Shown here: in pieces, positions 1 to 22,501 of the stretch
How the letters are laid out: the number at the start of each line of letters is the position of its first letter
How positions within the stretch are numbered: the first letter of the stretch is position 1
Source: a virus
Taxonomy: Duplodnaviria > Heunggongvirae > Uroviricota > Caudoviricetes
DNA length: 44,108 bases
IMG/VR virus record: IMGVR_UViG_2529292919_000018
Reading direction: 5' to 3' (one strand)
Program-made: the position numbers and the translations under genes
The notes under the pieces: model-generated
Told to the model about the DNA's origin: nothing
The model's database searches: none
What the model saw: only the letters and a program-made list of their open reading frames with translations

Positions 1-1119
1 TCAAATAACCAACTTAACCCATTCCTGACCTCGAGTATCGTTATAGCGATCGGTGGTTGCCTGGACTTTATGTCCTAGTAATGTTTTTGTATCAATACCC
101 TGTGCACGGTACAGCCGTTCTGATAGAGAGCGTTGTTCATGAAATGTTGGCGGAGTTTTTCCTGCTGGTGGAATTATCCCAGCCAGATCCCGTGCTTTGG
201 CAAAGTAGTCGCTCAGGTTGTCTTTACTCATCGGCTTCGGTTGTTTCTGGTGCCGACTATGGATTAGATATGGACTTAATATTCTGTCTCGGCACCCATC
301 AATAACTTCTTTTAACGTTATCCCAATGGCATCACAGCGTAGTGTAAGCGGTAACGCCAGACGCATTCCGGTTTTTCCCTGGGTGATATGCAAGTGTTCG
401 TTCCACACATCTGAAAAACGCATGTGGCAAATGTCATCACGGCGCTGACCAGTAACAATCGCAAGAAGCATTGCGTTACGGATAAAGTGTTTTTCAGGCG
501 TTGCATTGTAAATTTTTTGCCAGTCTTCCATGGTGAGCCTGGCTCTGGTTACTTTAGGGATCGGTTTACGGGTAGCCTCCGGAGGATTCCATCCAGGAGG
601 AACTTCCCCTGCATGCTGTGCTTCTTTATAAATATCAACCCATAATCCACGATTTACTCTCGCTGTGCTGACCATGTCTTTATCCAGCCACTCATCCAGT
701 ATTAATGCAAAGTCTCTTACTTCCAGTTCTTTCAATGGGTGGTTTCCCAGACGGGAAACCAGGTATGCAGCCATTCGGGTTTTTTCTTTGTGAGTTGTAG
801 CTGCAATATCTCCATTTTTCAGTCGCGTGTCCTGTATTTTCAGATATCGATCAACCCATGCCTTTAATCTGATACCCCGACGTTTTGTTGCTGACGGACT
901 TTCATCAATTTTGCGCATGAAATATTCAGCTTCTGCTGCAGCTATTCGCTGATTGGCTGTGGAAGCGATTTTTTCTGCCTTACCTTTGTCTGTTCCGAGT
1001 CCGTGAAATTTTCCAGTCACAGGATTTTTATACTGGTAGTAAACTCTGCCAGTTCTGCGATCAAACTTTTCGTAAAGACCGGCTACGTCAGTGCTGTTTT
1101 TTCGTGGCCTCGGTGACAT
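1..1119 (-). CDS. int: Tyrosine-type site-specific integrase (lambda Int family)
   Basis: 372-aa ORF ending exactly at window start; C-terminal catalytic region with R...HxxR...Y pattern (TFHEQRSLSERLY, LLGHK, TTDRYNDTR); N-terminal arm-binding-like region; overlapped by xis-like gene. Confidence 0.9.
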   Translation of the reverse strand: MSPRPRKNSTDVAGLYEKFDRRTGRVYYQYKNPVTGKFHGLGTDKGKAEKIASTANQRIAAAEAEYFMRKIDESPSATKRRGIRLKAWVDRYLKIQDTRLKNGDIAATTHKEKTRMAAYLVSRLGNHPLKELEVRDFALILDEWLDKDMVSTARVNRGLWVDIYKEAQHAGEVPPGWNPPEATRKPIPKVTRARLTMEDWQKIYNATPEKHFIRNAMLLAIVTGQRRDDICHMRFSDVWNEHLHITQGKTGMRLALPLTLRCDAIGITLKEVIDGCRDRILSPYLIHSRHQKQPKPMSKDNLSDYFAKARDLAGIIPPAGKTPPTFHEQRSLSERLYRAQGIDTKTLLGHKVQATTDRYNDTRGQEWVKLVI

Positions 1120-1357
1120 GAGTTAAAATCTCCTTCAGTGCATCATCATCGCCAGTATGAATTTCCGGCGCAATTCCCGTTTCACCAGGCCCAACAAATA
1201 CTGCTCGGCGATCTATCAGCCAACGCCCACGAATTTTTTGTGGTCTTGGAACGATGTATCCTAGTTTTCCGTATTTCACCAGGGTAGTGTTTGTTATTGG
1301 GAGACTGAACCGTTTTGGTTTCCACTCGTCGAGCGTTATCAGGTACTGTTCGCTCAT
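1088..1357 (-). CDS. Putative excisionase / small DNA-binding protein
   Basis: 89-aa ORF from ATG at 1357 with GGAG RBS; 3' end overlaps the int start, the classic xis-int arrangement. No motif recognised; call is positional. Confidence 0.45.
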   Translation of the reverse strand: MSEQYLITLDEWKPKRFSLPITNTTLVKYGKLGYIVPRPQKIRGRWLIDRRAVFVGPGETGIAPEIHTGDDDALKEILTHVTEATKKQH

Positions 1358-1418
1358 GGCTATCACTCCGGAACGCGCCAGTTGCAGAATATCAACGACA
1401 ACTGGCGACGGTTGAACA

Positions 1419-3890
1419 TTAAAAATCAGCCTGATTCGGGATCAGTTTTTGCCAGATAGCTGAAACGTATTTTGCCTGGTGACGAGCGTCATCAAGTGCA
1501 TTATGGCGCTCACCTTCGAATGGAATAGCCGTTCTGGCATCGAAGTCTATGGCTTTCCCCAGCTCAACGATTGTGCGTACATCGCGATCGTTGTAGTAAC
1601 GCCACGGGCAGGGGATCCCCTGCCGTTCGTATGAACGGCGCAAAATCGTGTTGTCGAAGTTGGCTCCATTTCCCCAAACCTGAACAAAAAATTCACCGGA
1701 GTTTTCGTCGATAAATTCCCGCAATTGTAACAGTGCATCATCTAACGGGATTTCATCGGTCATAATGGCAGATTGCGCTTCGCGTGATTGCTTAAGCCAC
1801 CATTTAATGGTGTCCCGATCAATGACTCCGCCAGCAGTTTCCAGATCGATAGTCTTACTAAATTCCGGTCCCATATCTCCGGTTTGCGGATCGAAAAATA
1901 TTGCACCTATTGAGATGATCGGGGCATCAGGATTTTTTCCCATGGTTTCAAGGTCGATCATTAGATGGTCACACGTCCTGCTGGTGGATGTGATTTCGTG
2001 ATGACCGTTCACCTTAATTGAGTGATCTGCCGTCTCGCCAGTCTCATTATCGCTATTGTGATGCTGATTGCCGCCAGTGTTCTCCTTGTGTGGATGCTCA
2101 GCGCCTTCCATTTCCTCCGGATCATCTTCCTGAACTTCAACCTGATACTCTTCACCGAATGTTTCCTGGTATGTTGCGTCGCCCATCACCGCACCACAAT
2201 CAGGGCAGTTGCCGCCGCCGGTCTGACCGCAGGCGGTGCAGACTTTTTCCACTTCCTGTTGCACTACTGGTTCAGGTAGTTTCGTTTCTGGCTCGTTTTG
2301 TTGCGTATTTGGGCTGTTTTGTTCCGCTTTCTGGTCGTTCTGTTCCGTTTCTTGCTGGTTCTGGTTCACAGAATCGCGGGTTTCAATCCCCTTCACCCAT
2401 TTCGGATCATTCGGATCGCTAACCCCTGCAACAAATTCACCACGTGATACTGCAAGCAGTTCATCGGCGTCAGGCTGGCTGATATTGGCTGCCTGCATAA
2501 TTTTGTTTACTTCGTCAGCGGTAACTTTTACCGGCCCTGGTTGTGCGGTCGTGTCAGATGCACCAGTATTTTGTTGTGAACCTGAGTATGTACCGTTTTT
2601 GCGGGCGAAATATTCTTCTTTCGTGATTTCAGTAGCCCCTGTAGCCAGTGCCTTATCCAGACCAGAAAGTTTGTTTGCGCGACCGTATTTTTCGCTATCC
2701 TTGTCGGTGAAGAGGAAGTAGAACGGCCCTTCACGCTCTACAGATGGTTCGACTTCCACTTTGCATTCGGTTTTTTCGTTGTCCGGAATTGCCGTTTCCA
2801 CTGCATCAGTTTCTGGTACTGGCGACGAGAGAGTATCAGTTGCGCTCTGATTTCTTCCTTCATCTTCAAACACGCCCTTTGTAGTCAGGTATTCAGTAAT
2901 GTATTTGTTCAGTGCCACAGGGTCTTTGTGAATGTCGATCGGACGTTCACGGACAAGGCCAAAAATAGTCTGGCGGTCGTAGCGAAGGGCATCAGGCTGT
3001 TTGCGCATTGATGCCGAGATACGCTTCCAGTCTTCGCGGTCGTTGTCGATAACTTCTTTTTTTGCCCAGCGATGGATGCTGCCGTCAATGTTTCCGGCAT
3101 CCACATCACCAGGCCAGAGAGCGTAGGCCAGTTCGTCATCCAGTGTTTTCCATGTCTGCTTGTATTCGCGATGAGTGGCAGCAATGACCGGGCTGATTTT
3201 TCCTGTTGAATTTTCAGTGTTCTGTTGATTGGCTCTGGCGCGGGCGAGATCAACAACAGACGTGTATTTTCCGGTTTCCTTGCGTTCACCTTCGCGACGT
3301 TTTTTCCAGATGCGCATCTCTGCCTGAATTTCGGGCCATTTGGCACCAGGCTTACATTTATGCTTAACCCACCCGATGGCATGCAGCTTAAGCTCCGGAT
3401 ACATGGCGTTAACTTCTGGCATTTTCATCAACGCTTCAACGATATGTCCGTCGAATGTTGCCATGTCTTCCTGCAACAATTCCTGTGCGCTAATCACCAT
3501 ATCAACGGTGATGTTTTCACATGTGTCGAACTTAACCATGACAGCGTTCTGTACTTCAGGGGCCAGCTTGTCAAAAGTGACGTTCATCGGATCGGATTCA
3601 GTCTCAACCGGGACAAAAGAAGCAGAATCCTCATCCCAGCGGTTTTCCTGCATATATTCAGCATCCCATGAATCGAGGGCAGGGCGGGGTATGCCAGGTT
3701 TATCCTCGCAGACAATAAATTTATAAGCGCAGTCCTGAGCAGCCGGATAATGTTCCAGGAATTGCCAGTGAAATTTTGCTCGAGCACGGCGTTCGTCGCC
3801 AGCTTCAATGGCTGTGGCTACAGCCACAGCGCCTTCTTCCCTTGTTGCCAGTTCGTCAGGAATAGCGGCGCAAATAAAGACTTTACTCAT
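1419..3890 (-). CDS. Large multidomain protein with C-terminal DEDDh (DnaQ-like) 3'-5' exonuclease domain, zinc ribbon and acidic low-complexity linker (YdfE-like?)
   Basis: Start set to ATG at 3890 (MSKVF, GAGG RBS) rather than track start 3926. C-terminus has Exo I IDLETMG, Exo II WGNGANFD, Exo III HNALDDA. Central Q/E/T-rich segment and CTACGQTGGGNCPDCGA Cys4 ribbon. Confidence 0.75.
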   Translation of the reverse strand: MSKVFICAAIPDELATREEGAVAVATAIEAGDERRARAKFHWQFLEHYPAAQDCAYKFIVCEDKPGIPRPALDSWDAEYMQENRWDEDSASFVPVETESDPMNVTFDKLAPEVQNAVMVKFDTCENITVDMVISAQELLQEDMATFDGHIVEALMKMPEVNAMYPELKLHAIGWVKHKCKPGAKWPEIQAEMRIWKKRREGERKETGKYTSVVDLARARANQQNTENSTGKISPVIAATHREYKQTWKTLDDELAYALWPGDVDAGNIDGSIHRWAKKEVIDNDREDWKRISASMRKQPDALRYDRQTIFGLVRERPIDIHKDPVALNKYITEYLTTKGVFEDEGRNQSATDTLSSPVPETDAVETAIPDNEKTECKVEVEPSVEREGPFYFLFTDKDSEKYGRANKLSGLDKALATGATEITKEEYFARKNGTYSGSQQNTGASDTTAQPGPVKVTADEVNKIMQAANISQPDADELLAVSRGEFVAGVSDPNDPKWVKGIETRDSVNQNQQETEQNDQKAEQNSPNTQQNEPETKLPEPVVQQEVEKVCTACGQTGGGNCPDCGAVMGDATYQETFGEEYQVEVQEDDPEEMEGAEHPHKENTGGNQHHNSDNETGETADHSIKVNGHHEITSTSRTCDHLMIDLETMGKNPDAPIISIGAIFFDPQTGDMGPEFSKTIDLETAGGVIDRDTIKWWLKQSREAQSAIMTDEIPLDDALLQLREFIDENSGEFFVQVWGNGANFDNTILRRSYERQGIPCPWRYYNDRDVRTIVELGKAIDFDARTAIPFEGERHNALDDARHQAKYVSAIWQKLIPNQADF

Positions 3891-16805: not shown

Positions 16806-17294
16806 ATGATATATCCGGAAATTACAGGCAAAAGCGGCGAGCATTTACGTCTAAAAACGCTGGAAGCCGTCTGGATCCAGGGGAAATTACGGATGTGGGG
16901 GCGTTGGTCGTATATAGGTGGTGGCAAACCAGGAAATATGTTCAATCAGTTGCTGGCATCCAAAAAACTGACAAAAACCGCGGTCAATGAAGCCCTGCGT
17001 AGAATCAGGGAGTCAGGGATTGATAAACCAGAGCTGGAAGCATTCTTGCGAGAGATGATCGCTGGCAGACAGAAGAGCTGGTTGTCTCACTGTACTGATG
17101 CAGAGGCGTTACGCATTGATGGGGTGATAAGTAAAGCGCTTGCACGTTATCCTGGATTGATTGATATCCTGCGGCAAAGGTACGAAGGGCGGGGGATGAG
17201 TAAACGCAAAATGGCTGAATTGTTGAATGAGGTTCACCCTGAGTGGTGCTATGCAATGCCGCAATCGTATAGATATGTGGCTGAGAATAGCTGA
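16806..17294 (+). CDS. Putative late-gene antiterminator (Q-like) by position
   Basis: ATG 16806 (GTG 16794 overlaps rusA stop); located between rusA and a terminator/late region. No zinc-finger seen, so family uncertain. Confidence 0.4.
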   Translation: MIYPEITGKSGEHLRLKTLEAVWIQGKLRMWGRWSYIGGGKPGNMFNQLLASKKLTKTAVNEALRRIRESGIDKPELEAFLREMIAGRQKSWLSHCTDAEALRIDGVISKALARYPGLIDILRQRYEGRGMSKRKMAELLNEVHPEWCYAMPQSYRYVAENS

Positions 17295-17510
17295 GTTTAT
17301 TCTGTATCCACTGATGCGAGATGCATTTTCTTTTACTGACGCTTAGAATCTGGAGGGCGTTTGTTGTTGCACGAAGAGGATTTTTGGCTGGTAGTAAGGT
17401 TTGTGCAGTTTTAGAAAAAAAGCTTGTATTTTTAGCCATAAACTGTTTCAATCCAGCTACGCTTCGCAAAGCTGTACCGCGAGGCGAATAGCAGACATGG
17501 ACACCTGAAA

Positions 17511-17536
17511 GAACCCGCTTTATGCGGGTTTTTTTA
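17511..17536 (+). terminator. Rho-independent terminator (tR'-like) downstream of Q-like gene
   Basis: ACCCGC-TTTAT-GCGGGT hairpin followed by TTTTTTT. Confidence 0.6.
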
Positions 17537-17658
17537 TGCCTGAAAAACGGCACAGAACATTAAACGCGCTGGTAGTTGTGAATACTGGTCTTTCAGCTTG
17601 CTGGCTTTTTCGACAAGAGGTATTGGTATGTCACGTTAACCGGAAAAGGGAAAAAAGC

Positions 17659-17856
17659 ATGCTAAAACAGCAGGATATGACCGAAACCGCCAGAGTGGTG
17701 TTTAATGAATTAAGCGTCACCGAACCGGCGACCGTCGGGGAAATTGCGCAGAATACTTACCTTTCACGCGAACGCTGCCAGTTAATACTGACTCAGCTTG
17801 TTATGGCGGGTCTGGCAGATTATCAGTTCGGTTGTTACAGACGCCTTCCTCAGTGA
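17659..17856 (+). CDS. Hypothetical small protein (65 aa)
   Basis: ATG 17659 downstream of terminator; MLKQQDMTETARVVFNELSVTEPATVGEIAQ...; no family recognised. Confidence 0.4.
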   Translation: MLKQQDMTETARVVFNELSVTEPATVGEIAQNTYLSRERCQLILTQLVMAGLADYQFGCYRRLPQ

Positions 17857-18006
17857 AGGCTTTTTAATTTGTGGTAATGGGCGGCTGGTGGGTGTTAGCG
17901 GTACCTGCCAGCCATCTGCTCATGCGTTGGGGTCACAAGCAAACCTCAGGCCCATCTGCTTTGCGCAAAAGCGGTATGAGCCTATCAGAGAAGTGCTTAT
18001 TGATCT

Positions 18007-19056
18007 ATGATTAATACTGTAAAAATATCCAGTTGTGAGTTAATCAACGCTGATTGTCTGGAATTTATCCAGACCTTACCGGAAAATTCTGTCGATCTGA
18101 TAGTCACAGACCCGCCATACTTTAAAGTGAAGCCCGAGGGCTGGGATAACCAGTGGAAGGGCGACGATGATTACCTGAAATGGCTGGACCAGTGTCTGGC
18201 GCAGTTCTGGCGGGTACTGAAGCCTGCCGGAAGTCTTTACCTGTTCTGTGGTCATCGCCTGGCATCTGACACCGAAATCATGATGCGTGAGCGCTTTAAT
18301 GTGCTGAACCACATTATCTGGGCGAAGCCGTCCGGACGCTGGAACGGGTGCAATAAGGAAAGTCTGCGGGCGTATTTTCCGGCAACAGAGCGCATTCTGT
18401 TTGCAGAACATTATCAGGGACCGTATCGCCCGAAAGATGATGGCTATGTGGTACAGGGGCGCGGGCTAAAACAGCACGTCATGGCCCCGCTGATTTCTTA
18501 CTTTCGTGATGCGCGTAAATCACTGGGAATAACGTCAAAACAGATAGCGGAAGCCACCGGAAAGAAAAACATGGCTTCGCACTGGTTTGGTACCAGTCAG
18601 TGGCAGTTACCGAACGAGGGTGATTACAACAAATTGCAGGCGTTGTTTGCGCGTGTTGCGGCAGAAAAACATCAGCGCGGGGAACTGGAAAAGCCACACC
18701 ACCAGCTGGTCAGCACATACAGTGAGCTGAACCGGCAGTATACGGAACTGCTGAGTGAATATAAAAATTTGCGGCGGTATTTCGGTGTGACGGCGCAGGT
18801 TCCGTACACCGATGTCTGGACGCATAAACCGGTGCAGTACTATCCAGGGAAACATCCGTGCGAAAAACCGGCAGAAATGCTGCAGCAGATAATCAACGCG
18901 AGCAGTCGTCCGGGAGACCTGGTTGCAGATTTTTTTATGGGTTCAGGTTCAACGGTAAAAGCGGCGATGGCACTGGGGCGTCGTGCGATTGGTGTTGAGC
19001 TGGAGACCGGACGTTTTGAACAGACAGTCAGGGAAGTTCAGGATTTAATCGTTTGA
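18007..19056 (+). CDS. DNA methyltransferase (N6-adenine/N4-cytosine, beta-class; orphan)
   Basis: Motif IV DLIVTDPPYF near N-terminus and AdoMet motif I FFMGSGSTVKAA near C-terminus; no adjacent restriction endonuclease gene. Confidence 0.85.
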   Translation: MINTVKISSCELINADCLEFIQTLPENSVDLIVTDPPYFKVKPEGWDNQWKGDDDYLKWLDQCLAQFWRVLKPAGSLYLFCGHRLASDTEIMMRERFNVLNHIIWAKPSGRWNGCNKESLRAYFPATERILFAEHYQGPYRPKDDGYVVQGRGLKQHVMAPLISYFRDARKSLGITSKQIAEATGKKNMASHWFGTSQWQLPNEGDYNKLQALFARVAAEKHQRGELEKPHHQLVSTYSELNRQYTELLSEYKNLRRYFGVTAQVPYTDVWTHKPVQYYPGKHPCEKPAEMLQQIINASSRPGDLVADFFMGSGSTVKAAMALGRRAIGVELETGRFEQTVREVQDLIV

Positions 19057-19105
19057 AACGGATGAGATTGCAGAATTAATTACGCACCATTATTATTCTG
19101 CTCCC

Positions 19106-19181
19106 GGCCCTTTAGCTCAGTGGTGAGAGCGAGCGACTCATAATCGCCAGGTCGCTGGTTCAAATCCAGCAAGGGCCACCA
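19106..19181 (+). tRNA. tRNA with CAU anticodon (Met or lysidine-type Ile2; ileZ-like)
   Basis: Acceptor stem GGCCCTT/AAGGGCC, D-arm TAGCTCAGTGGT-AGAGC, anticodon loop CTCATAA, T-arm GGTTCAAATCC, 3' CCA. Coordinates +/- 2. Confidence 0.8.
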
Positions 19182-19188
19182 TCACATA

Positions 19189-19265
19189 CCGCCATTAGCT
19201 CATCAGGATAGAGCGCCAGCCTTCGAAGCTGGTTGCGCGGGGTTCGAGTCCTCGATGGCGGTCCA
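19189..19265 (+). tRNA. tRNA-Arg (anticodon UCG; argN-like)
   Basis: Acceptor CCGCCAT/ATGGCGG, anticodon stem GCCAGC/GCTGGT with loop CTTCGAA, T-loop TTCGAGT, 3' CCA. Confidence 0.8.
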
Positions 19266-19278
19266 TTATCTGTACCCT

Positions 19279-19355
19279 GCGTTGTTAGCTCAGCCGGACA
19301 GAGCAATTGCCTTCTAAGCAATCGGTCACTGGTTCGAATCCAGTACAACGCGCCA
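19279..19355 (+). tRNA. tRNA-Arg (anticodon UCU; argO-like)
   Basis: Acceptor GCGTTGT/ACAACGC, anticodon stem ATTGC/GCAAT with loop CTTCTAA, T-arm GGTTCGAATCC, 3' CCA. Confidence 0.8.
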
Positions 19356-19368
19356 CGCTTATTTTTCC

Positions 19369-19392
19369 AGGCTCGCTTCGGCGGGCCTTTTT
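19369..19392 (+). terminator. Hairpin + T-run after tRNA cluster
   Basis: AGGCTCGC-TTCG-GCGGGCCT followed by TTTTTC. Confidence 0.45.
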
Positions 19393-19532
19393 CATATCCG
19401 CGCCACGCCCGGCGCACATCAAAAAACCACAGAGCCTTTCAGGGGGGAGCTTACGGGATGGTCAGTGTGACTTTCTCTGTGGGCTGGTCACCCCCCCGGG
19501 CGCAGGCTCACCCACTAAAAGGAAAAGTCACG

Positions 19533-19958
19533 ATGTTTGGTATTTTCAAAAAGAAAACCCGCAAGGCCATTACCGAAGTGAAGAAGATGGAGAACCGTGA
19601 CGCAGTGGAGGCGACCGTCTGGGGCGCGTACTCCATTGCATACGCTGACGGCACCTGTGACGCGAAAGAAATCGCGGTACTGGAAAAAACCATTGCAGCA
19701 CTTCCTGCCTTTGCGCCGTTCTCCGGTGAGATTGCACAAATGAGTGCAAATATCCGCGCCCGTTATGAAGCGTCGCCGCGTTCTGCCAATGCCGAAGCTC
19801 TTCGTCAGCTGGCTGATGTTGCCGGTACTGATGATGCAGTTAATGTGCTGTGCCTGTGTCTGGATATCGCTGACCAGGACGGTATCGCTCAGGAAGAAGA
19901 AGCGCAACTGAAGAAAATTGCGCAGGCGCTGCAGTTGCCGCTGGAGCAGTACCTGTGA
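19533..19958 (+). CDS. Hypothetical protein, possibly TerB-like fold
   Basis: Track ORF 19233..19958 overlaps the tRNAs; real start taken as ATG 19533 after AAAGGAAAAG. Repeated ADG/DQDG...E motifs (YADGTCDAKEIAVLE; DIADQDGIAQEEEAQL) suggest TerB-like. Tentative. Confidence 0.4.
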   Translation: MFGIFKKKTRKAITEVKKMENRDAVEATVWGAYSIAYADGTCDAKEIAVLEKTIAALPAFAPFSGEIAQMSANIRARYEASPRSANAEALRQLADVAGTDDAVNVLCLCLDIADQDGIAQEEEAQLKKIAQALQLPLEQYL

Positions 19959-20193
19959 AAAGTGCGCGCCTTGTGCTGGCTGTCATCCTGTTGTTTCTGG
20001 TAGTGGTGGTTGATTTCACCGGACGACTGATGTCAGTGCTGACAGATGGTGTGCTGGTGGCGATGGTGCTGGTCGTGCTCCGGCCTTTACTGCGTAAATC
20101 TGAATAACATCACACAAAAGGCATCTGCGGATGCCTTTGACGGGGTGTTTTTTACGGGTCGCTGGTGGCCCTTTTTTATTTTCAGGAGGAAGT

Positions 20194-20586
20194 ATGTCTG
20201 AACCCTTATCCGGTTCCGGCACGGCTGCGGCGCTGGGGGGCGCGACGGTATTCGGGCTGTTTACCGGGATGGATTTCGGGATTGTGTTTGGCGCGTTCGC
20301 CGGGGCGTTATTTGTGGCAACAATGCCACAGTCACTTTCAGTCTGGCGCGTAGTGGCACATTTTCTGGTGTCGTTTATTGTCGGCGTGCTGGGAGCGCGT
20401 GTGCTGTCAGCCTGGATTGCATCAAAAACAGGGTATGACGCTACATCAGCAGATGCGCTTTGCGCGGTGCTGGTCTCGGTGGTGTCGGTGAAGATTCTCT
20501 CGTTCATCCACCAGCAGGATATTGCATCGCTGGTGTCCGGTGTGTTCTCCCGCCTGCGGGGTGGAGGAGGCGGCAATGTTAAGTAA
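20194..20586 (+). CDS. Membrane protein, putative holin
   Basis: ATG 20194 after GGAGGAAG; Gly/Ala-rich hydrophobic helices; directly upstream of endolysin. Confidence 0.5.
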   Translation: MSEPLSGSGTAAALGGATVFGLFTGMDFGIVFGAFAGALFVATMPQSLSVWRVVAHFLVSFIVGVLGARVLSAWIASKTGYDATSADALCAVLVSVVSVKILSFIHQQDIASLVSGVFSRLRGGGGGNVK

Positions 20587-20851
20587 CCTTCCCGGATTGC
20601 TGAATGTGGCGTTATGCACGGTTATCGTGCTGACGCTCTTTTTTTATCGTCGCCGTGATTCCAGACATAAACCGCTGGTGTCATGGCTGGCCTGGCTGCT
20701 GATGCTGCTGTATGCCTTTGCGCCCCTCAGCTATCTGTGTGGTCGCCCGTTAGCAACGGGCTGGCTGGAAGTGTTTTTTAATCTGCTGTTCTGCGTGCTG
20801 GTGATACGCGCACGCGGGAACGTCACAAAAATCTTTCCATTGTTGAGGTGA
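20576..20851 (+). CDS. Small membrane protein (holin/antiholin-like)
   Basis: ATG 20576 after GGAGGAGG; two hydrophobic helices; overlaps neighbours on both sides. Confidence 0.45.
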   Translation: MLSNLPGLLNVALCTVIVLTLFFYRRRDSRHKPLVSWLAWLLMLLYAFAPLSYLCGRPLATGWLEVFFNLLFCVLVIRARGNVTKIFPLLR

Positions 20852-21231
20852 ATATGCCGGGTAAATTCAGATTCAGCCGTCGCAGTGAAAAAAATCTGGA
20901 GGGTGTCAAACCACAGCTGGTTGCTGTAGTTCGCCGTGCGCTGGAGCTGACGGAGGTTGATTTCGGTATTACGGAAGGCCTGCGCAGTAAGTATCGCCAG
21001 AAACAGCTGGTTGCGGAAGGGAAAAGCCAGACCATGAACAGCCGCCACCTGACCGGTGATGCGGTGGATGTTGTGGCCTACATTGGCAGTCAGGTGTCAT
21101 GGGAGTGGCCTCTGTACGAGAAAATCGCACAGGCATTTAAGCAGGCTGCCGCAGAGCTGGGGATCGCTATCGAATGGGGCGGGGACTGGAAAACGCTGAA
21201 AGACGGACCTCACTTTCAGCTGAAGCGATAA
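20848..21231 (+). CDS. Endolysin, peptidase M15 (L-alanyl-D-glutamate peptidase type)
   Basis: 127 aa; SRHLTGDAVDV ... GGDWKTLKDGPHFQL zinc-peptidase-like H/D/H pattern typical of small M15 endolysins; position after holin-like genes. Confidence 0.75.
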   Translation: MNMPGKFRFSRRSEKNLEGVKPQLVAVVRRALELTEVDFGITEGLRSKYRQKQLVAEGKSQTMNSRHLTGDAVDVVAYIGSQVSWEWPLYEKIAQAFKQAAAELGIAIEWGGDWKTLKDGPHFQLKR

Positions 21232-21242
21232 GTAAAACAAAA

Positions 21243-21272
21243 CCCCGGCTGGGGGAACAGTCCGGGGTTTTT
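21243..21272 (+). terminator. Rho-independent terminator after endolysin
   Basis: CCCCGG...CCGGGG stem followed by TTTTT. Confidence 0.5.
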
Positions 21273-21363
21273 AGTTTTCACGTCAAAGGGGAAATTGTGA
21301 TTAGTGAGTACGGAGAAAATCCTCGTGGGAAAGTATAAAAGATTCTTTTTGAGGTTGTCCATT

Positions 21364-21478
21364 ATGAAAGGTATTGAAATGGAAACTCCCGCGAGCCTTG
21401 ATTTGACAAGGGCTGCGGCCTTTGCAATTCGCCTTGTGGCGGTCGCTGTTCTGATTTGGGCTGTGCGTTGGTGGTGAT
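21364..21478 (+). CDS. Small transmembrane peptide (about 37 aa), possible spanin/lysis accessory
   Basis: MKGIEMETPASLDLTRAAAFAIRLVAVAVLIWAVRWW; directly precedes the lipoprotein gene. Confidence 0.3.
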
Positions 21479-21661
21479 ATGGCGCGAAAACACTGGACAC
21501 ACAGAATGCCGCGAACGGCGGTGAAACGGGCACTGGTAGCGATACTGGTGCCTTTTTTATTGGTGGGGTGCGTCAGCCTGGATAAGGCGCGCCAGCTTTT
21601 CGATACCGCGTCTCAGGTCTGTGAAATTGTCGACGGTGTTCGGCAGTGTCTGCAGAACTGA
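21479..21661 (+). CDS. Small lipoprotein (lipobox LLVGC), possible o-spanin-like lysis component
   Basis: 60 aa with signal-like N-terminus and LVGC lipobox; adjacent to lysis cassette. Confidence 0.45.
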   Translation: MARKHWTHRMPRTAVKRALVAILVPFLLVGCVSLDKARQLFDTASQVCEIVDGVRQCLQN

Positions 21662-22003
21662 TCGCCTGTAAGAGCAGAATATTTTGCTGAAAAATGAAGG
21701 GTGCGTCAGCGTCCGGAAAGCATGAAATTCTGCTGCGTGTGCCAATTTTATCTTATTCATTCTAAATCTTGCCGAATCAAGATGAACTTTGATCAACTGC
21801 CCGGCGGCAAGGGGCATTAAAACAGGAGAAAATTATGTGGAAACCTACAGGTGATAAGTTAATCACCGCGTTGATTGACGGCAAGCCACAATACTTACGC
21901 ATTGAAATGAGCGGTCAACATGCTCGATTGATTCGTGAGTAACAGGCATTACAGCAGCTCTTCAGTGAGGGGCTGCGATAATGTCGGTATTAAGGAGATT
22001 CCA

Positions 22004-22354
22004 ATGCCATCACGGATCCCCCGCGCCTGTCGTAAGCGAGGCTGCGCAGGCACAACAACAGACAGCTCTGGCTACTGTGGTAAACATCGTGGTGAAGGCT
22101 GGGTGCAGCACCAGCGCGGACTGAGCCGCCACCAGCGTGGCTATGGCTCAAAATGGACGGTGATTCGTGCCCGTATTCTGAAGCGCGATAAAGGTCTGTG
22201 TCAGTTGTGTCTGCGTGCCGGTGTGGTGAGCGAGGCGAAAACCGTCGACCACATCATCCCGAAAGCGCATGGCGGAACAGACGCAGACAGCAACCTGCAG
22301 AGTCTGTGCTGGCCCTGCCATAAAGCGAAAACAGCGCGCGAACGAATCAGGTGA
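22004..22354 (+). CDS. HNH endonuclease (terminase-associated)
   Basis: ATG 22004 after TAAGGAG; CQLCLRAG...DHIIPKAHGGTD..NLQSLCWPCH motif; immediately upstream of terminase small subunit. Confidence 0.85.
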   Translation: MPSRIPRACRKRGCAGTTTDSSGYCGKHRGEGWVQHQRGLSRHQRGYGSKWTVIRARILKRDKGLCQLCLRAGVVSEAKTVDHIIPKAHGGTDADSNLQSLCWPCHKAKTARERIR

Positions 22355-22501
22355 TAATTATTCTCACTTGTAGGGAGGGGCGGGGCAAATCCCTGCAGCC
22401 CTGGCTGTCCGGGACCGCCCGCCAACCCTTCTTCGCATCGCCGCAGGTTCGAAAACTTTTTTTTGGGAATGCGATCAAACGATTGATAGGTAAAATCGAT
22501 T

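Follow-up and report, generated by a model that had tools for sequence, protein, structure and literature searches.

In phages that carry Shiga toxin 2 (Stx2), the toxin genes follow a cluster of three transfer RNA (tRNA) genes, ileZ-argN-argO. What fills this place in a prophage that has the cluster without the toxin, and what do the tRNAs serve there? We examined these questions in the IMG/VR record IMGVR_UViG_2529292919_000018, a stretch of 44,108 bp (hereafter the window) that is essentially one lambdoid-type prophage. The locus is an accessory ("moron") stretch in the late operon of a lambdoid E. coli prophage and consists of stacked cassettes bounded by terminators. Their order is a Q-like antiterminator, a strong terminator, a small open reading frame (ORF), an orphan N6 DNA methyltransferase, a unit formed by a pT-like promoter, ileZ-argN-argO and a terminator, a leader, the gene pair tciA-tciB, terminator-like hairpins, two holins and an endolysin (Table 1). 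The explanation that we prefer, with a probability of about 0.7, is that a tRNA cassette of the Stx-phage kind serves the phage genome and that tciAB is expressed late, its products acting at the membrane.

The arrangement is ordinary, recurrent and already annotated, and the finding is already known, since the same 1.2 kb with the same annotation occurs in 65 complete E. coli genomes. Positions 19000-20200 were found at a coverage of at least 80% in 65 of 5,426 such genomes, with identity up to 99.8% in strain TW10722, where the annotation reads DNA-methyltransferase, tRNA-Ile, two tRNA-Arg, tellurite resistance TerB family protein and DUF3927 family protein. The leader and tciAB alone are present in 165 genomes. 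As a discovery the locus has little value: names for the tRNA cluster have stood in Stx-phage records for decades, and the cargo pair carries phage P1 gene names. The testable statements of the initial annotation of this DNA, namely a tRNA trio, a cargo gene with TerB-like repeats, a small hydrophobic ORF and no toxin, all hold.

The tRNA cassette and its kinship with Stx2 phages

Exactly three tRNA genes were found by ARAGORN in the whole window, all on the plus strand, with spacers of 7 and 13 nt between them (ARAGORN coordinates). The trio proposed from the letters alone, with the anticodons CAU, UCG and UCU, is accepted by both ARAGORN and the Rfam tRNA model, the latter giving E-values from 7e-15 to 2.5e-10 (gathering score 29). 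Its likeness to ileZ-argN-argO of the Stx phages, first noticed as a shared anticodon set, goes further, as the genes are true sequence homologues. By blastn, positions 19000-19404 have 91-93% nucleotide identity with more than 200 Stx2-phage records in which these genes are annotated as ileZ, argN and argO. The CAU tRNA is the same as ileZ of Stx2 phage 06-3462 at 76/76 positions (68/76 against ileX of E. coli K-12), and the two other genes differ from their Stx2-phage counterparts at 2 positions (argN) and 1 position (argO).

The CAU tRNA shares with K-12 ileX the acceptor pairs C4-G69 and C5-G68, which are determinants for the lysidine synthetase (TilS). PGAP named the near-identical copy in TW10722 tRNA-Ile, and ARAGORN, from the anticodon alone, called the gene Met. 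We consider it an ileX-like tRNA-Ile2, which would read AUA after lysidine modification.

The unit resembles that of the Stx2 phages (933W type; Stx2a_WGPS8, F723, PA28 and 06-3462) in its three tRNA genes, their order and spacing, the pT-like promoter, the closing terminator and the place downstream of Q and a methylase or methylase remnant. In phage 06-3462 the feature annotated as "pT; putative tRNA promoter" aligns with positions 19068-19096 of the window, and an annotated terminator aligns with 19369-19392. The likeness stops there: the terminator is followed by stx2A in those phages and by tciA here, and about 95 nt of the tciA leader are missing from the stx2 upstream region. The Stx-phage Q also differs from the DUF1133-type Q of this prophage, and the holins (Phage_holin_8 and Phage_holin_3_7) and M15 endolysin found here contrast with the lysis genes of the related phage JLK-2012, which are of the S/R/Rz type.

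According to the blastn boundaries, homology to Stx phages ends at 19404, and homology to phage pPE4 and its relatives, which covers tciAB and the holin-endolysin cassette, begins at 19369. The terminator at 19369-19393 is therefore a mosaic junction. By alignment, tciAB occupies the position held by stxAB in Stx2 phages. A tblastn search of the window with Stx2A and Stx2B gave no homologue (best E 0.82), in line with the earlier statement that toxin genes are absent, and the slot is filled by tciA-tciB. The locus is a clean example of how the "stx slot" behind ileZ-argN-argO serves for cargo in general and is sharply delimited by recombination at the tRNA terminator.

Codon usage and the role of the tRNAs

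Codons were counted on curated ORF sets, and the values are given per 1000 codons. AUA is used 16.0 times in early-region genes and 5.5 times in late genes, AGA 9.6 and 4.9, AGG 4.8 and 5.3, and CGA 7.2 and 5.0, the E. coli K-12 averages being about 4.3, 2.1, 1.2 and 3.5, respectively. Relative to these averages, the codons matched by the tRNAs are 1.3- to 4.6-fold enriched in prophage genes. Their heaviest users are three genes of a low-GC island, encoding a DUF5677 protein, PtuA (14 AUA and 7 AGA in 457 codons) and PtuB. On the other side, tciA contains none of the codons AUA, AGA, AGG, CGA and CGG, and tciB contains one CGA and one CGG. Since it is the prophage genes that are rich in the matched codons, and tciA has none of them, we infer that the tRNAs serve the phage genome and not the adjacent cargo.

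In the lysogen, the tRNAs would be transcribed from their own weak promoter, to which late read-through may add after induction, and they would increase the decoding capacity for AUA, AGA/AGG and CGA/CGG. Through pT, they plausibly serve AT-rich accessory genes in the lysogen. The codon analysis thus provides a concrete rationale for prophage tRNAs, which may support low-GC accessory genes such as the Septu genes of the same prophage. The island itself (9113-12989, in the early region, with 38-42% GC at 8-14 kb) holds a complete Septu anti-phage system; the whole island is missing from the annotation of the otherwise near-identical TW10722 prophage.

TciA and TciB

The ATG of tciA lies within a longer, TTG-started ORF. 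The protein had been described as one of 141 aa with TerB-like repeats, and this is confirmed by a match to Pfam TerB (PF05099; 32.2 bits, cut-off 24.4) and by a duplicated acidic DG...E motif, AYADGTCDAKEIAVLEK and IADQDGIAQEEEAQLKK, at residues 36-52 and 112-128. PHROG 632, "tellurite resistance", matches TciA over its full length. The protein has 85.8% identity with TciA of phage P1 over all 141 residues (80% at the nucleotide level), and residues D39, G40, E46, E51, G117 and L126 are invariant in 31 homologues. An AlphaFold2 model (pLDDT 85.4) has six helices, and its best fold match in the PDB by Foldseek is 2h5n (probability 1.0, TM-score 0.54-0.60), a structural-genomics protein classed as TerB-like. 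The assignment of the TerB fold to TciA is consistent with the model, not strong.

TciA is similar to TerB of the ter operons (terZABCDE, IncHI2 R478, the O157 tellurite island) in its Pfam family, in the duplicated DG...E motifs and as a small all-helical protein. It differs in its partner, a 50-aa DUF3927 peptide, and the sequence search of the PDB gives no TerB. The tellurite-type annotation of P1 tciA was made "by homology" only, as its GenBank record states.

That the cargo does not match a core phage function is in agreement with PHROGs, where both proteins belong to the category "moron, auxiliary metabolic gene and host takeover", and with the dispensability of the P1 genes: in a genome-wide CRISPR interference (CRISPRi) screen, tciA, tciB and tciC were non-essential for P1 plaque formation (PMC10695390).

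Directly after the TerB gene stands the small hydrophobic ORF noted before, which is now assigned to DUF3927 (52.4 bits, cut-off 25). The GTG start of tciB overlaps the TGA stop of tciA (GTGA), which suggests translational coupling of the two genes. TciB has two hydrophobic segments, with a conserved acidic residue in each (DFT... and ...DG...), and a basic C-terminus. The alignment of its homologues from P1, JLK-2012, Evi, N4-like phages and others displays a conserved DFT...DG...WP(L/I)K pattern. In the allele group of this prophage, codon 43 (within 20043-20083) encodes Arg (CGG), which replaces the Trp (TGG) that most homologues have in the C-terminal ...LW-P(L/I)K motif.

Distribution of the tciA-tciB pair

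In phage P1, tciB (DUF3927, 7e-31) also follows tciA directly and tRNA genes flank the unit, with tRNA-Asn and tRNA-Thr upstream and an ileX-like tRNA-Ile2 directly after tciC. The P1 genes, tciABC, differ in belonging to the C1-repressed ban operon and not to a Q-dependent late operon as here. Nucleotide homology to P1 is limited to the coding sequence of tciA, the leader is not shared, and P1 tciC has no counterpart in the window.

The order Q-(tRNAs)-tciA-tciB-lysis was found as well in JLK-2012, Evi, LMessi, Klebsiella phage 1 LV-2017 (where tciB is not annotated) and pPE4. JLK-2012 and Evi, both lambdoid, fill the slot in the same way, with Q, a tRNA array, tciA-tciB and lysis genes, and their tciA leader has 79-85% nucleotide identity with that of the window. 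They differ from it in carrying a divergent TciA allele, with only 42-44% identity, and in their tRNA sets, Asn/Thr/Gly in JLK-2012 and CAU/Lys/Arg in Evi. The array of Evi resembles the one described here in that it opens with a CAU tRNA and closes with Arg-UCU. In JLK-2012 a nanS-p-like esterase gene stands between tciB and the holin gene S, unlike here.

The pPE4 record (PP818812.1, "Actinobacillus phage vB_Apl-pPE4") matches this E. coli prophage at 91-97% identity across tciAB, the holin genes and the endolysin gene. The record is attributed to Actinobacillus pleuropneumoniae and carries a hok-family gene typical of enterobacterial lambdoids, so that the host attribution looks doubtful.

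Outside the lambdoid phages, TerB and DUF3927 genes are paired in the N4-like phages Pollock and UTK0002 (DUF3927 at 1e-14 and 8e-12), in Pantoea phage LIET2 (3e-6), in Pseudomonas phage phiK7B1 (8e-7) and, with a weak match (0.012), in the Erwinia jumbo phage Caitlin. These phages belong to groups known as strictly virulent. In Vibrio phage BUCT194, TerB, TerC/Alx and TerB are encoded consecutively. The spread of this two-gene module over temperate and virulent phages of enterobacteria, Pseudomonas and Erwinia is a reason to characterise TciA and TciB.

Next to the pairs of TerB/TciA and DUF3927 stand tRNA genes, in phage lineages that are unrelated and with anticodons that differ from case to case; the stretches with pair and tRNAs lie at the record-local positions 3116-4776 in P1, 409-1809 in Caitlin and 552-1530 in phiK7B1. 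Of 80 tciA loci from IMG/VR, closely related to one another and not independent, 49 are preceded on the same strand, at no more than 700 nt, by tRNAs, in at least 8 anticodon sets. The commonest set is CAU-UCG-UCU (17 loci), the others including CAU-UCU, Val, Gly and Thr-Gly, and the commonest spacer from tRNA to tciA across all sets is 176 nt (22 loci). A related-locus search with a diverse alignment recovered only E. coli prophage copies of 91-100% identity, so it does not cover independent lineages. A TerB-DUF3927 fusion protein (P0060) was considered as Rosetta-stone evidence and set aside as a probable artefact, as it occurs in a single contig and stems from a one-base shift.

Expression and possible function of tciAB

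A consensus scan, which may miss weak or activator-dependent promoters, found no sigma-70-like hexamer pair at 8/12 or better in the 177 nt before tciA (19356-19532), and no promoter-like site at the same threshold between tciB and the holin gene. Because no such site was found, the simplest view is that tciAB is carried along by antiterminated late transcription, in the way of stx2 in Stx2 phages. The unit ends in terminator-like hairpins (20117-20181) just before the lysis genes. Standing behind a terminator and a leader predicted to occlude the Shine-Dalgarno (SD) sequence, tciAB would be made mainly when late transcription, antiterminated, passes through it, at the same time as the lysis genes, and TciA and TciB would be produced in a coupled fashion. 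As a cassette between Q and the lysis genes, with intrinsic terminators at its edges and exchanged at conserved junctions, tciAB resembles the other lambdoid late-operon morons (stx, nanS-p, bor-type). It differs from them in the lack of a detected promoter of its own and in its presence in virulent phages.

At the inner membrane, TciA and TciB probably form a complex that adjusts membrane or ion physiology in the infected cell. The analogy with TerB from ter operons suggests that the complex could shield the cell from depolarising events, for example pore-forming colicins, superinfection or holins that trigger too early; metal or ion handling is another possible activity. Since the pair occurs also in virulent phages and no promoter-like site was found, we favour, with moderate confidence, a role in membrane physiology during lytic growth over classical lysogenic conversion.

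Several points weigh against the late, membrane-directed role of tciAB and the service of the tRNAs to the phage genome. The Pfam TerB match is limited to residues 11-57 of TciA, and the fold match is moderate at the TM-scores given above, with a Foldseek E of 6e-3. Searches of PADLOC, NCBIfam and PDB sequences gave no match for TciA or TciB. No TerC, TerD, TerE or TerZ is present in the annotated neighbourhood, including the near-identical TW10722 region, and the analogy to ter operons is weak because such partners (TerC, TerD, TerZ) are missing there. The interaction of TciA with TciB is one that we infer only from conserved adjacency, the gene overlap and one probably artefactual fusion. 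The late promoter pR' was not located in a crude sigma-70 consensus scan. Finally, compared with the 181-aa protein of TW10722, the Q-like gene has a 2-bp deletion after 17255 that shifts the frame at about residue 150. The last 31 residues are exchanged for 12 unrelated ones, and the DUF1133 match breaks off at position 151 of the 176 in the model. Either the antiterminator is inactivated and the prophage defective, or the sequence contains an error. A real deletion may cripple late read-through in this strain, and with it the expression of tciAB and of the lysis genes.

The tciA leader as a candidate regulatory element

About 130 lambdoid tciA loci (59 distinct sequences) were collected, from E. 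coli, Klebsiella and Enterobacter, and the leader has 79-97% nucleotide identity in all of them. This conservation is independent of the upstream tRNAs and extends even to JLK-2012 and Evi, with their TciA of no more than 42-44% identity. Of the distinct sequences, 38 were used to test two structures; these sequences represent few clades and were collected with a search pattern that fixed part of the 5' side. In the first (RNAalifold), CCUUU at 19435-19439 pairs with the SD sequence AAAGG at 19518-19522, and this helix surrounds GGGUGAGC/GCUCACCC and an inner hairpin. Here 96% of the cells are paired, against 32-43% in slid controls, and 6 pairs have a compensatory change, a count reached in 13 of 500 shuffles. 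The second structure, mutually exclusive with the first, has a GCCCGG/CCGGGC helix that encloses CCACAGAG/CUCUGUGG, an invariant helix, and that shows one clean swap of C-G to U-A (23 versus 14 sequences).

We report the leader as a candidate cis-regulatory element and not as a finding. A stronger proposal is that it is an undescribed cis-regulatory RNA in which the anti-SD CCUUU gates the translation of tciAB and the fold with CCACAGAG/CUCUGUGG and the covarying GCCCGG/CCGGGC frees the SD, the adjacency of tRNAs and tciAB being in addition a functional link. We hold this proposal only tentatively and consider it rather doubtful. The single-sequence fold has a z-score of only -1.8, and conserved flanks are also what recombination junctions look like, which weakens the regulatory reading. 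No Rfam family was found in the leader at permissive thresholds, including the yybP-ykoY Mn riboswitch, which regulates TerC-family genes.

Parts of the leader occur in other contexts. A contig scan with a 16-mer from it gave mostly chance matches in unrelated phyla and about 9 loci with the leader, two of them titled Enterobacter. The first 95-100 nt, approximately, are also detached from tciA: they stand about 250 nt upstream of a tRNA-like sequence (judged by eye) in two IMG/VR contigs and precede a 63-aa ORF in two other contigs. One genome has almost the whole leader in front of a gene for an NMT1/TAXI-like periplasmic binding protein. A TAXI-family solute receptor is the annotated product of the gene that directly follows the terB pair in Erwinia phage Caitlin.

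Other explanations for tciAB

The initial annotation had hinted that cargo in this slot is often a lysogenic-conversion factor. For tciAB this would mean that the resting prophage expresses the pair, for instance by read-through from the tRNA promoter, and makes its host resistant, in a Ter-like way, to tellurite, to pore-forming colicins or to other phages. In favour are the moron-like terminators at the edges of the cassette, the moron category given to both proteins in PHROGs, a pT-like promoter on the same strand 430 nt further upstream, and the retention of the arrangement in 65 complete genomes, many of them from human isolates. Between pT and tciA, however, stands a stable terminator (z -4.35), no promoter-like hexamers occur in the 177 nt before tciA, and the SD is predicted to be occluded by the leader. 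Homologous pairs in N4-like and, more weakly, in jumbo phages, groups known as obligately virulent, belong to phages incapable of converting a host. The absence of TerC/D/E/Z genes from the annotated TW10722 neighbourhood and the homology-only basis of the P1 annotation also count against it. For this cargo we therefore do not follow the hint, and we judge classical conversion to be unlikely.

The constant place of the pair could instead point to an accessory of lysis timing, with TciB and TciA modulating the neighbouring holins in an antiholin-like or holin-stabilising manner and so setting the time of lysis. All lambdoid examples examined have Q on one side of the pair and the lysis cassette on the other, mostly with the holins following at once; the pair is co-transcribed with the holins as far as no promoter was found between them, and TciB is small and hydrophobic like holin partners. 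This is quite improbable given the variety of neighbours. The P1 pair is in the C1-controlled ban operon, flanked by tRNAs, with no lysis gene annotated within the 8.4 kb examined, and the annotated neighbours in the N4-like, Pantoea, Pseudomonas and Erwinia phages are not lysis genes. The pair stands beside at least three holin types (Phage_holin_8/3_7 here, lambda S-type in JLK-2012, and others), and in JLK-2012 the esterase gene that parts it from S measures 1.9 kb.

It is very improbable that tRNAs and tciAB form one anti-weapon unit, in which the tRNAs replace those cut by anticodon nucleases or nuclease colicins and TciAB counters colicins or defence effectors at the membrane: tRNAs do adjoin the pair in P1, JLK-2012, Evi, Caitlin (Trp and Cys upstream), phiK7B1 (one tRNA 300 nt downstream) and the 49 of 80 IMG/VR loci, which are not independent, but about half of the loci lack an adjacent tRNA, tciAB stands without tRNAs in LMessi, the Klebsiella phage, pPE4 and the N4-like phages, the variation in anticodon sets points to a permissive slot that takes both kinds of insert and not to a fixed functional pairing, and PADLOC matches neither protein.

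Upstream genes

The tRNA trio had been placed downstream of the Q-like gene. It is indeed downstream, but not adjacent, as Q lies 1.8 kb upstream, with a small ORF and the methyltransferase in between. The terminator after Q is probably a tR'-like terminator that the antiterminator must override; just 5' of it, positions 17388-17488 have 82% identity with phage pPE4. The small ORF, of 65 aa, is annotated as hypothetical in TW10722 and is followed by a weak hairpin with a T run at 17843-17865, whose fold z-score is only -1.35. Some Stx2 phages keep only a 3' remnant of the methyltransferase, such as the 153-nt "DNA methylase" remnant at the same place in 06-3462.

Table 1. Features of the window, with their positions, strand and supporting matches or predictions.
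Feature	Position	Strand	Support
DUF5677 protein	9113-9955		Low-GC island
PtuA, Septu	10994-12367		PADLOC 2e-165
PtuB, Septu, HNH	12354-12989		PADLOC 1e-83
RusA-type Holliday junction resolvase, last early/nin-region gene before the antiterminator	16432..16797	+	Pfam RusA 4.9e-16; PHROG 34
Q-like late antiterminator (DUF1133)	16806..17294	+	Pfam DUF1133 2e-89; Phage_antitermQ 1.6e-6; PHROG 753 "anti-termination protein Q-like"
Intrinsic terminator downstream of Q, stem ACCCGC/GCGGGU and U7	17506..17536	+	-20.6 kcal/mol, z -5.6
65-aa ORF	17659..17856	+	PHROG 331 3.7e-47
N6/N4 DNA methyltransferase, 349 aa, orphan, type II-like	18007..19056	+	Pfam N6_N4_Mtase 1.1e-44; PADLOC MTase_II 8e-161
pT-like sigma-70 promoter for the tRNA genes, TTGCAG-17-TATTAT, 8/12	19068..19096	+	Aligns with 06-3462 feature
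tRNA-Ile2 (anticodon CAU, ileZ homologue)	19106..19181	+	ARAGORN; Rfam 72.5 bits
tRNA-Arg (anticodon UCG, argN homologue), CGA/CGG reader	19189..19265	+	ARAGORN; Rfam 56 bits; cloverleaf minimum free energy fold
tRNA-Arg (anticodon UCU, argO homologue), AGA/AGG reader	19279..19355	+	ARAGORN; Rfam 70.1 bits
Intrinsic terminator closing the tRNA unit	19369..19393	+	8-bp stem with 6 GC pairs, T5; -14.6 kcal/mol, z -4.35
tciA leader, about 137 nt	19396..19532	+	Conserved; predicted long-range helix onto the SD
tciA, 141-aa soluble all-helical TerB-family protein	19533..19958	+	Pfam TerB 1.4e-7; PHROG 632 5e-64
tciB, 50-aa DUF3927 peptide	19955..20107	+	Pfam DUF3927 5.4e-14; PHROG 1470 "TciB-like" 2.2e-22
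Two stem-loops, each with a U tract (20117-20138; 20156-20171 and T6)	20117..20181	+	-28.2 kcal/mol, z -4.15
Holin (Phage_holin_8)	20194..20586	+	Pfam 3.7e-23; PHROG 198
Second holin (Phage_holin_3_7)	20576..20851	+	Pfam 1.2e-21; PHROG 217
M15 metallopeptidase endolysin	20854..21231	+	Pfam Peptidase_M15_4 7.5e-13; PHROG 465 3.6e-75

Prophage mosaicism and Pas small RNAs

The window starts with an integrase-like ORF, and beyond the endolysin it contains an HNH ORF, terminase-like ORFs and long plus-strand ORFs resembling head/tail genes, as read from the ORF translations. The module from Q to the endolysin (16001-21732) is 99.4% identical to the TW10722 prophage. Past 21732, TW10722 has lambda-like packaging and tail genes, whereas the window has the HNH, terminase-like and different head/tail ORFs. 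This is a clean mosaic boundary, of the kind ordinary in lambdoid phages.

TerB, RusA, DUF1627 and tRNAs are named as typical neighbours of the small RNAs (sRNAs) PasA and PasC (bioRxiv 10.64898/2026.05.13.724894; PMC8550237). PasA, PasC and PasD were considered for the window and rejected: a blastn comparison (word size 7) of 16001-22500 with the PasD2-PasA (PP2) and PasC (PP5) loci of strain E2348/69, at coordinates from table S6 of PMC8550237, aligned the DUF3927 ORF only. The terminator after argO (19357-19399) has a sub-threshold match (17.5 bits, E 0.078) to the 3' end of Rfam STnc100, a prophage sRNA that the Pas paper relates to PasD. In PP2 of E2348/69, an enteropathogenic E. coli (EPEC), a DUF3927 (TciB-like) gene without a TerB partner stands 40 nt upstream of the PasD2 sRNA (local positions 3459-3829). 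It lies between Q and a nanS-p-like esterase gene, the same slot as that of tciAB here.

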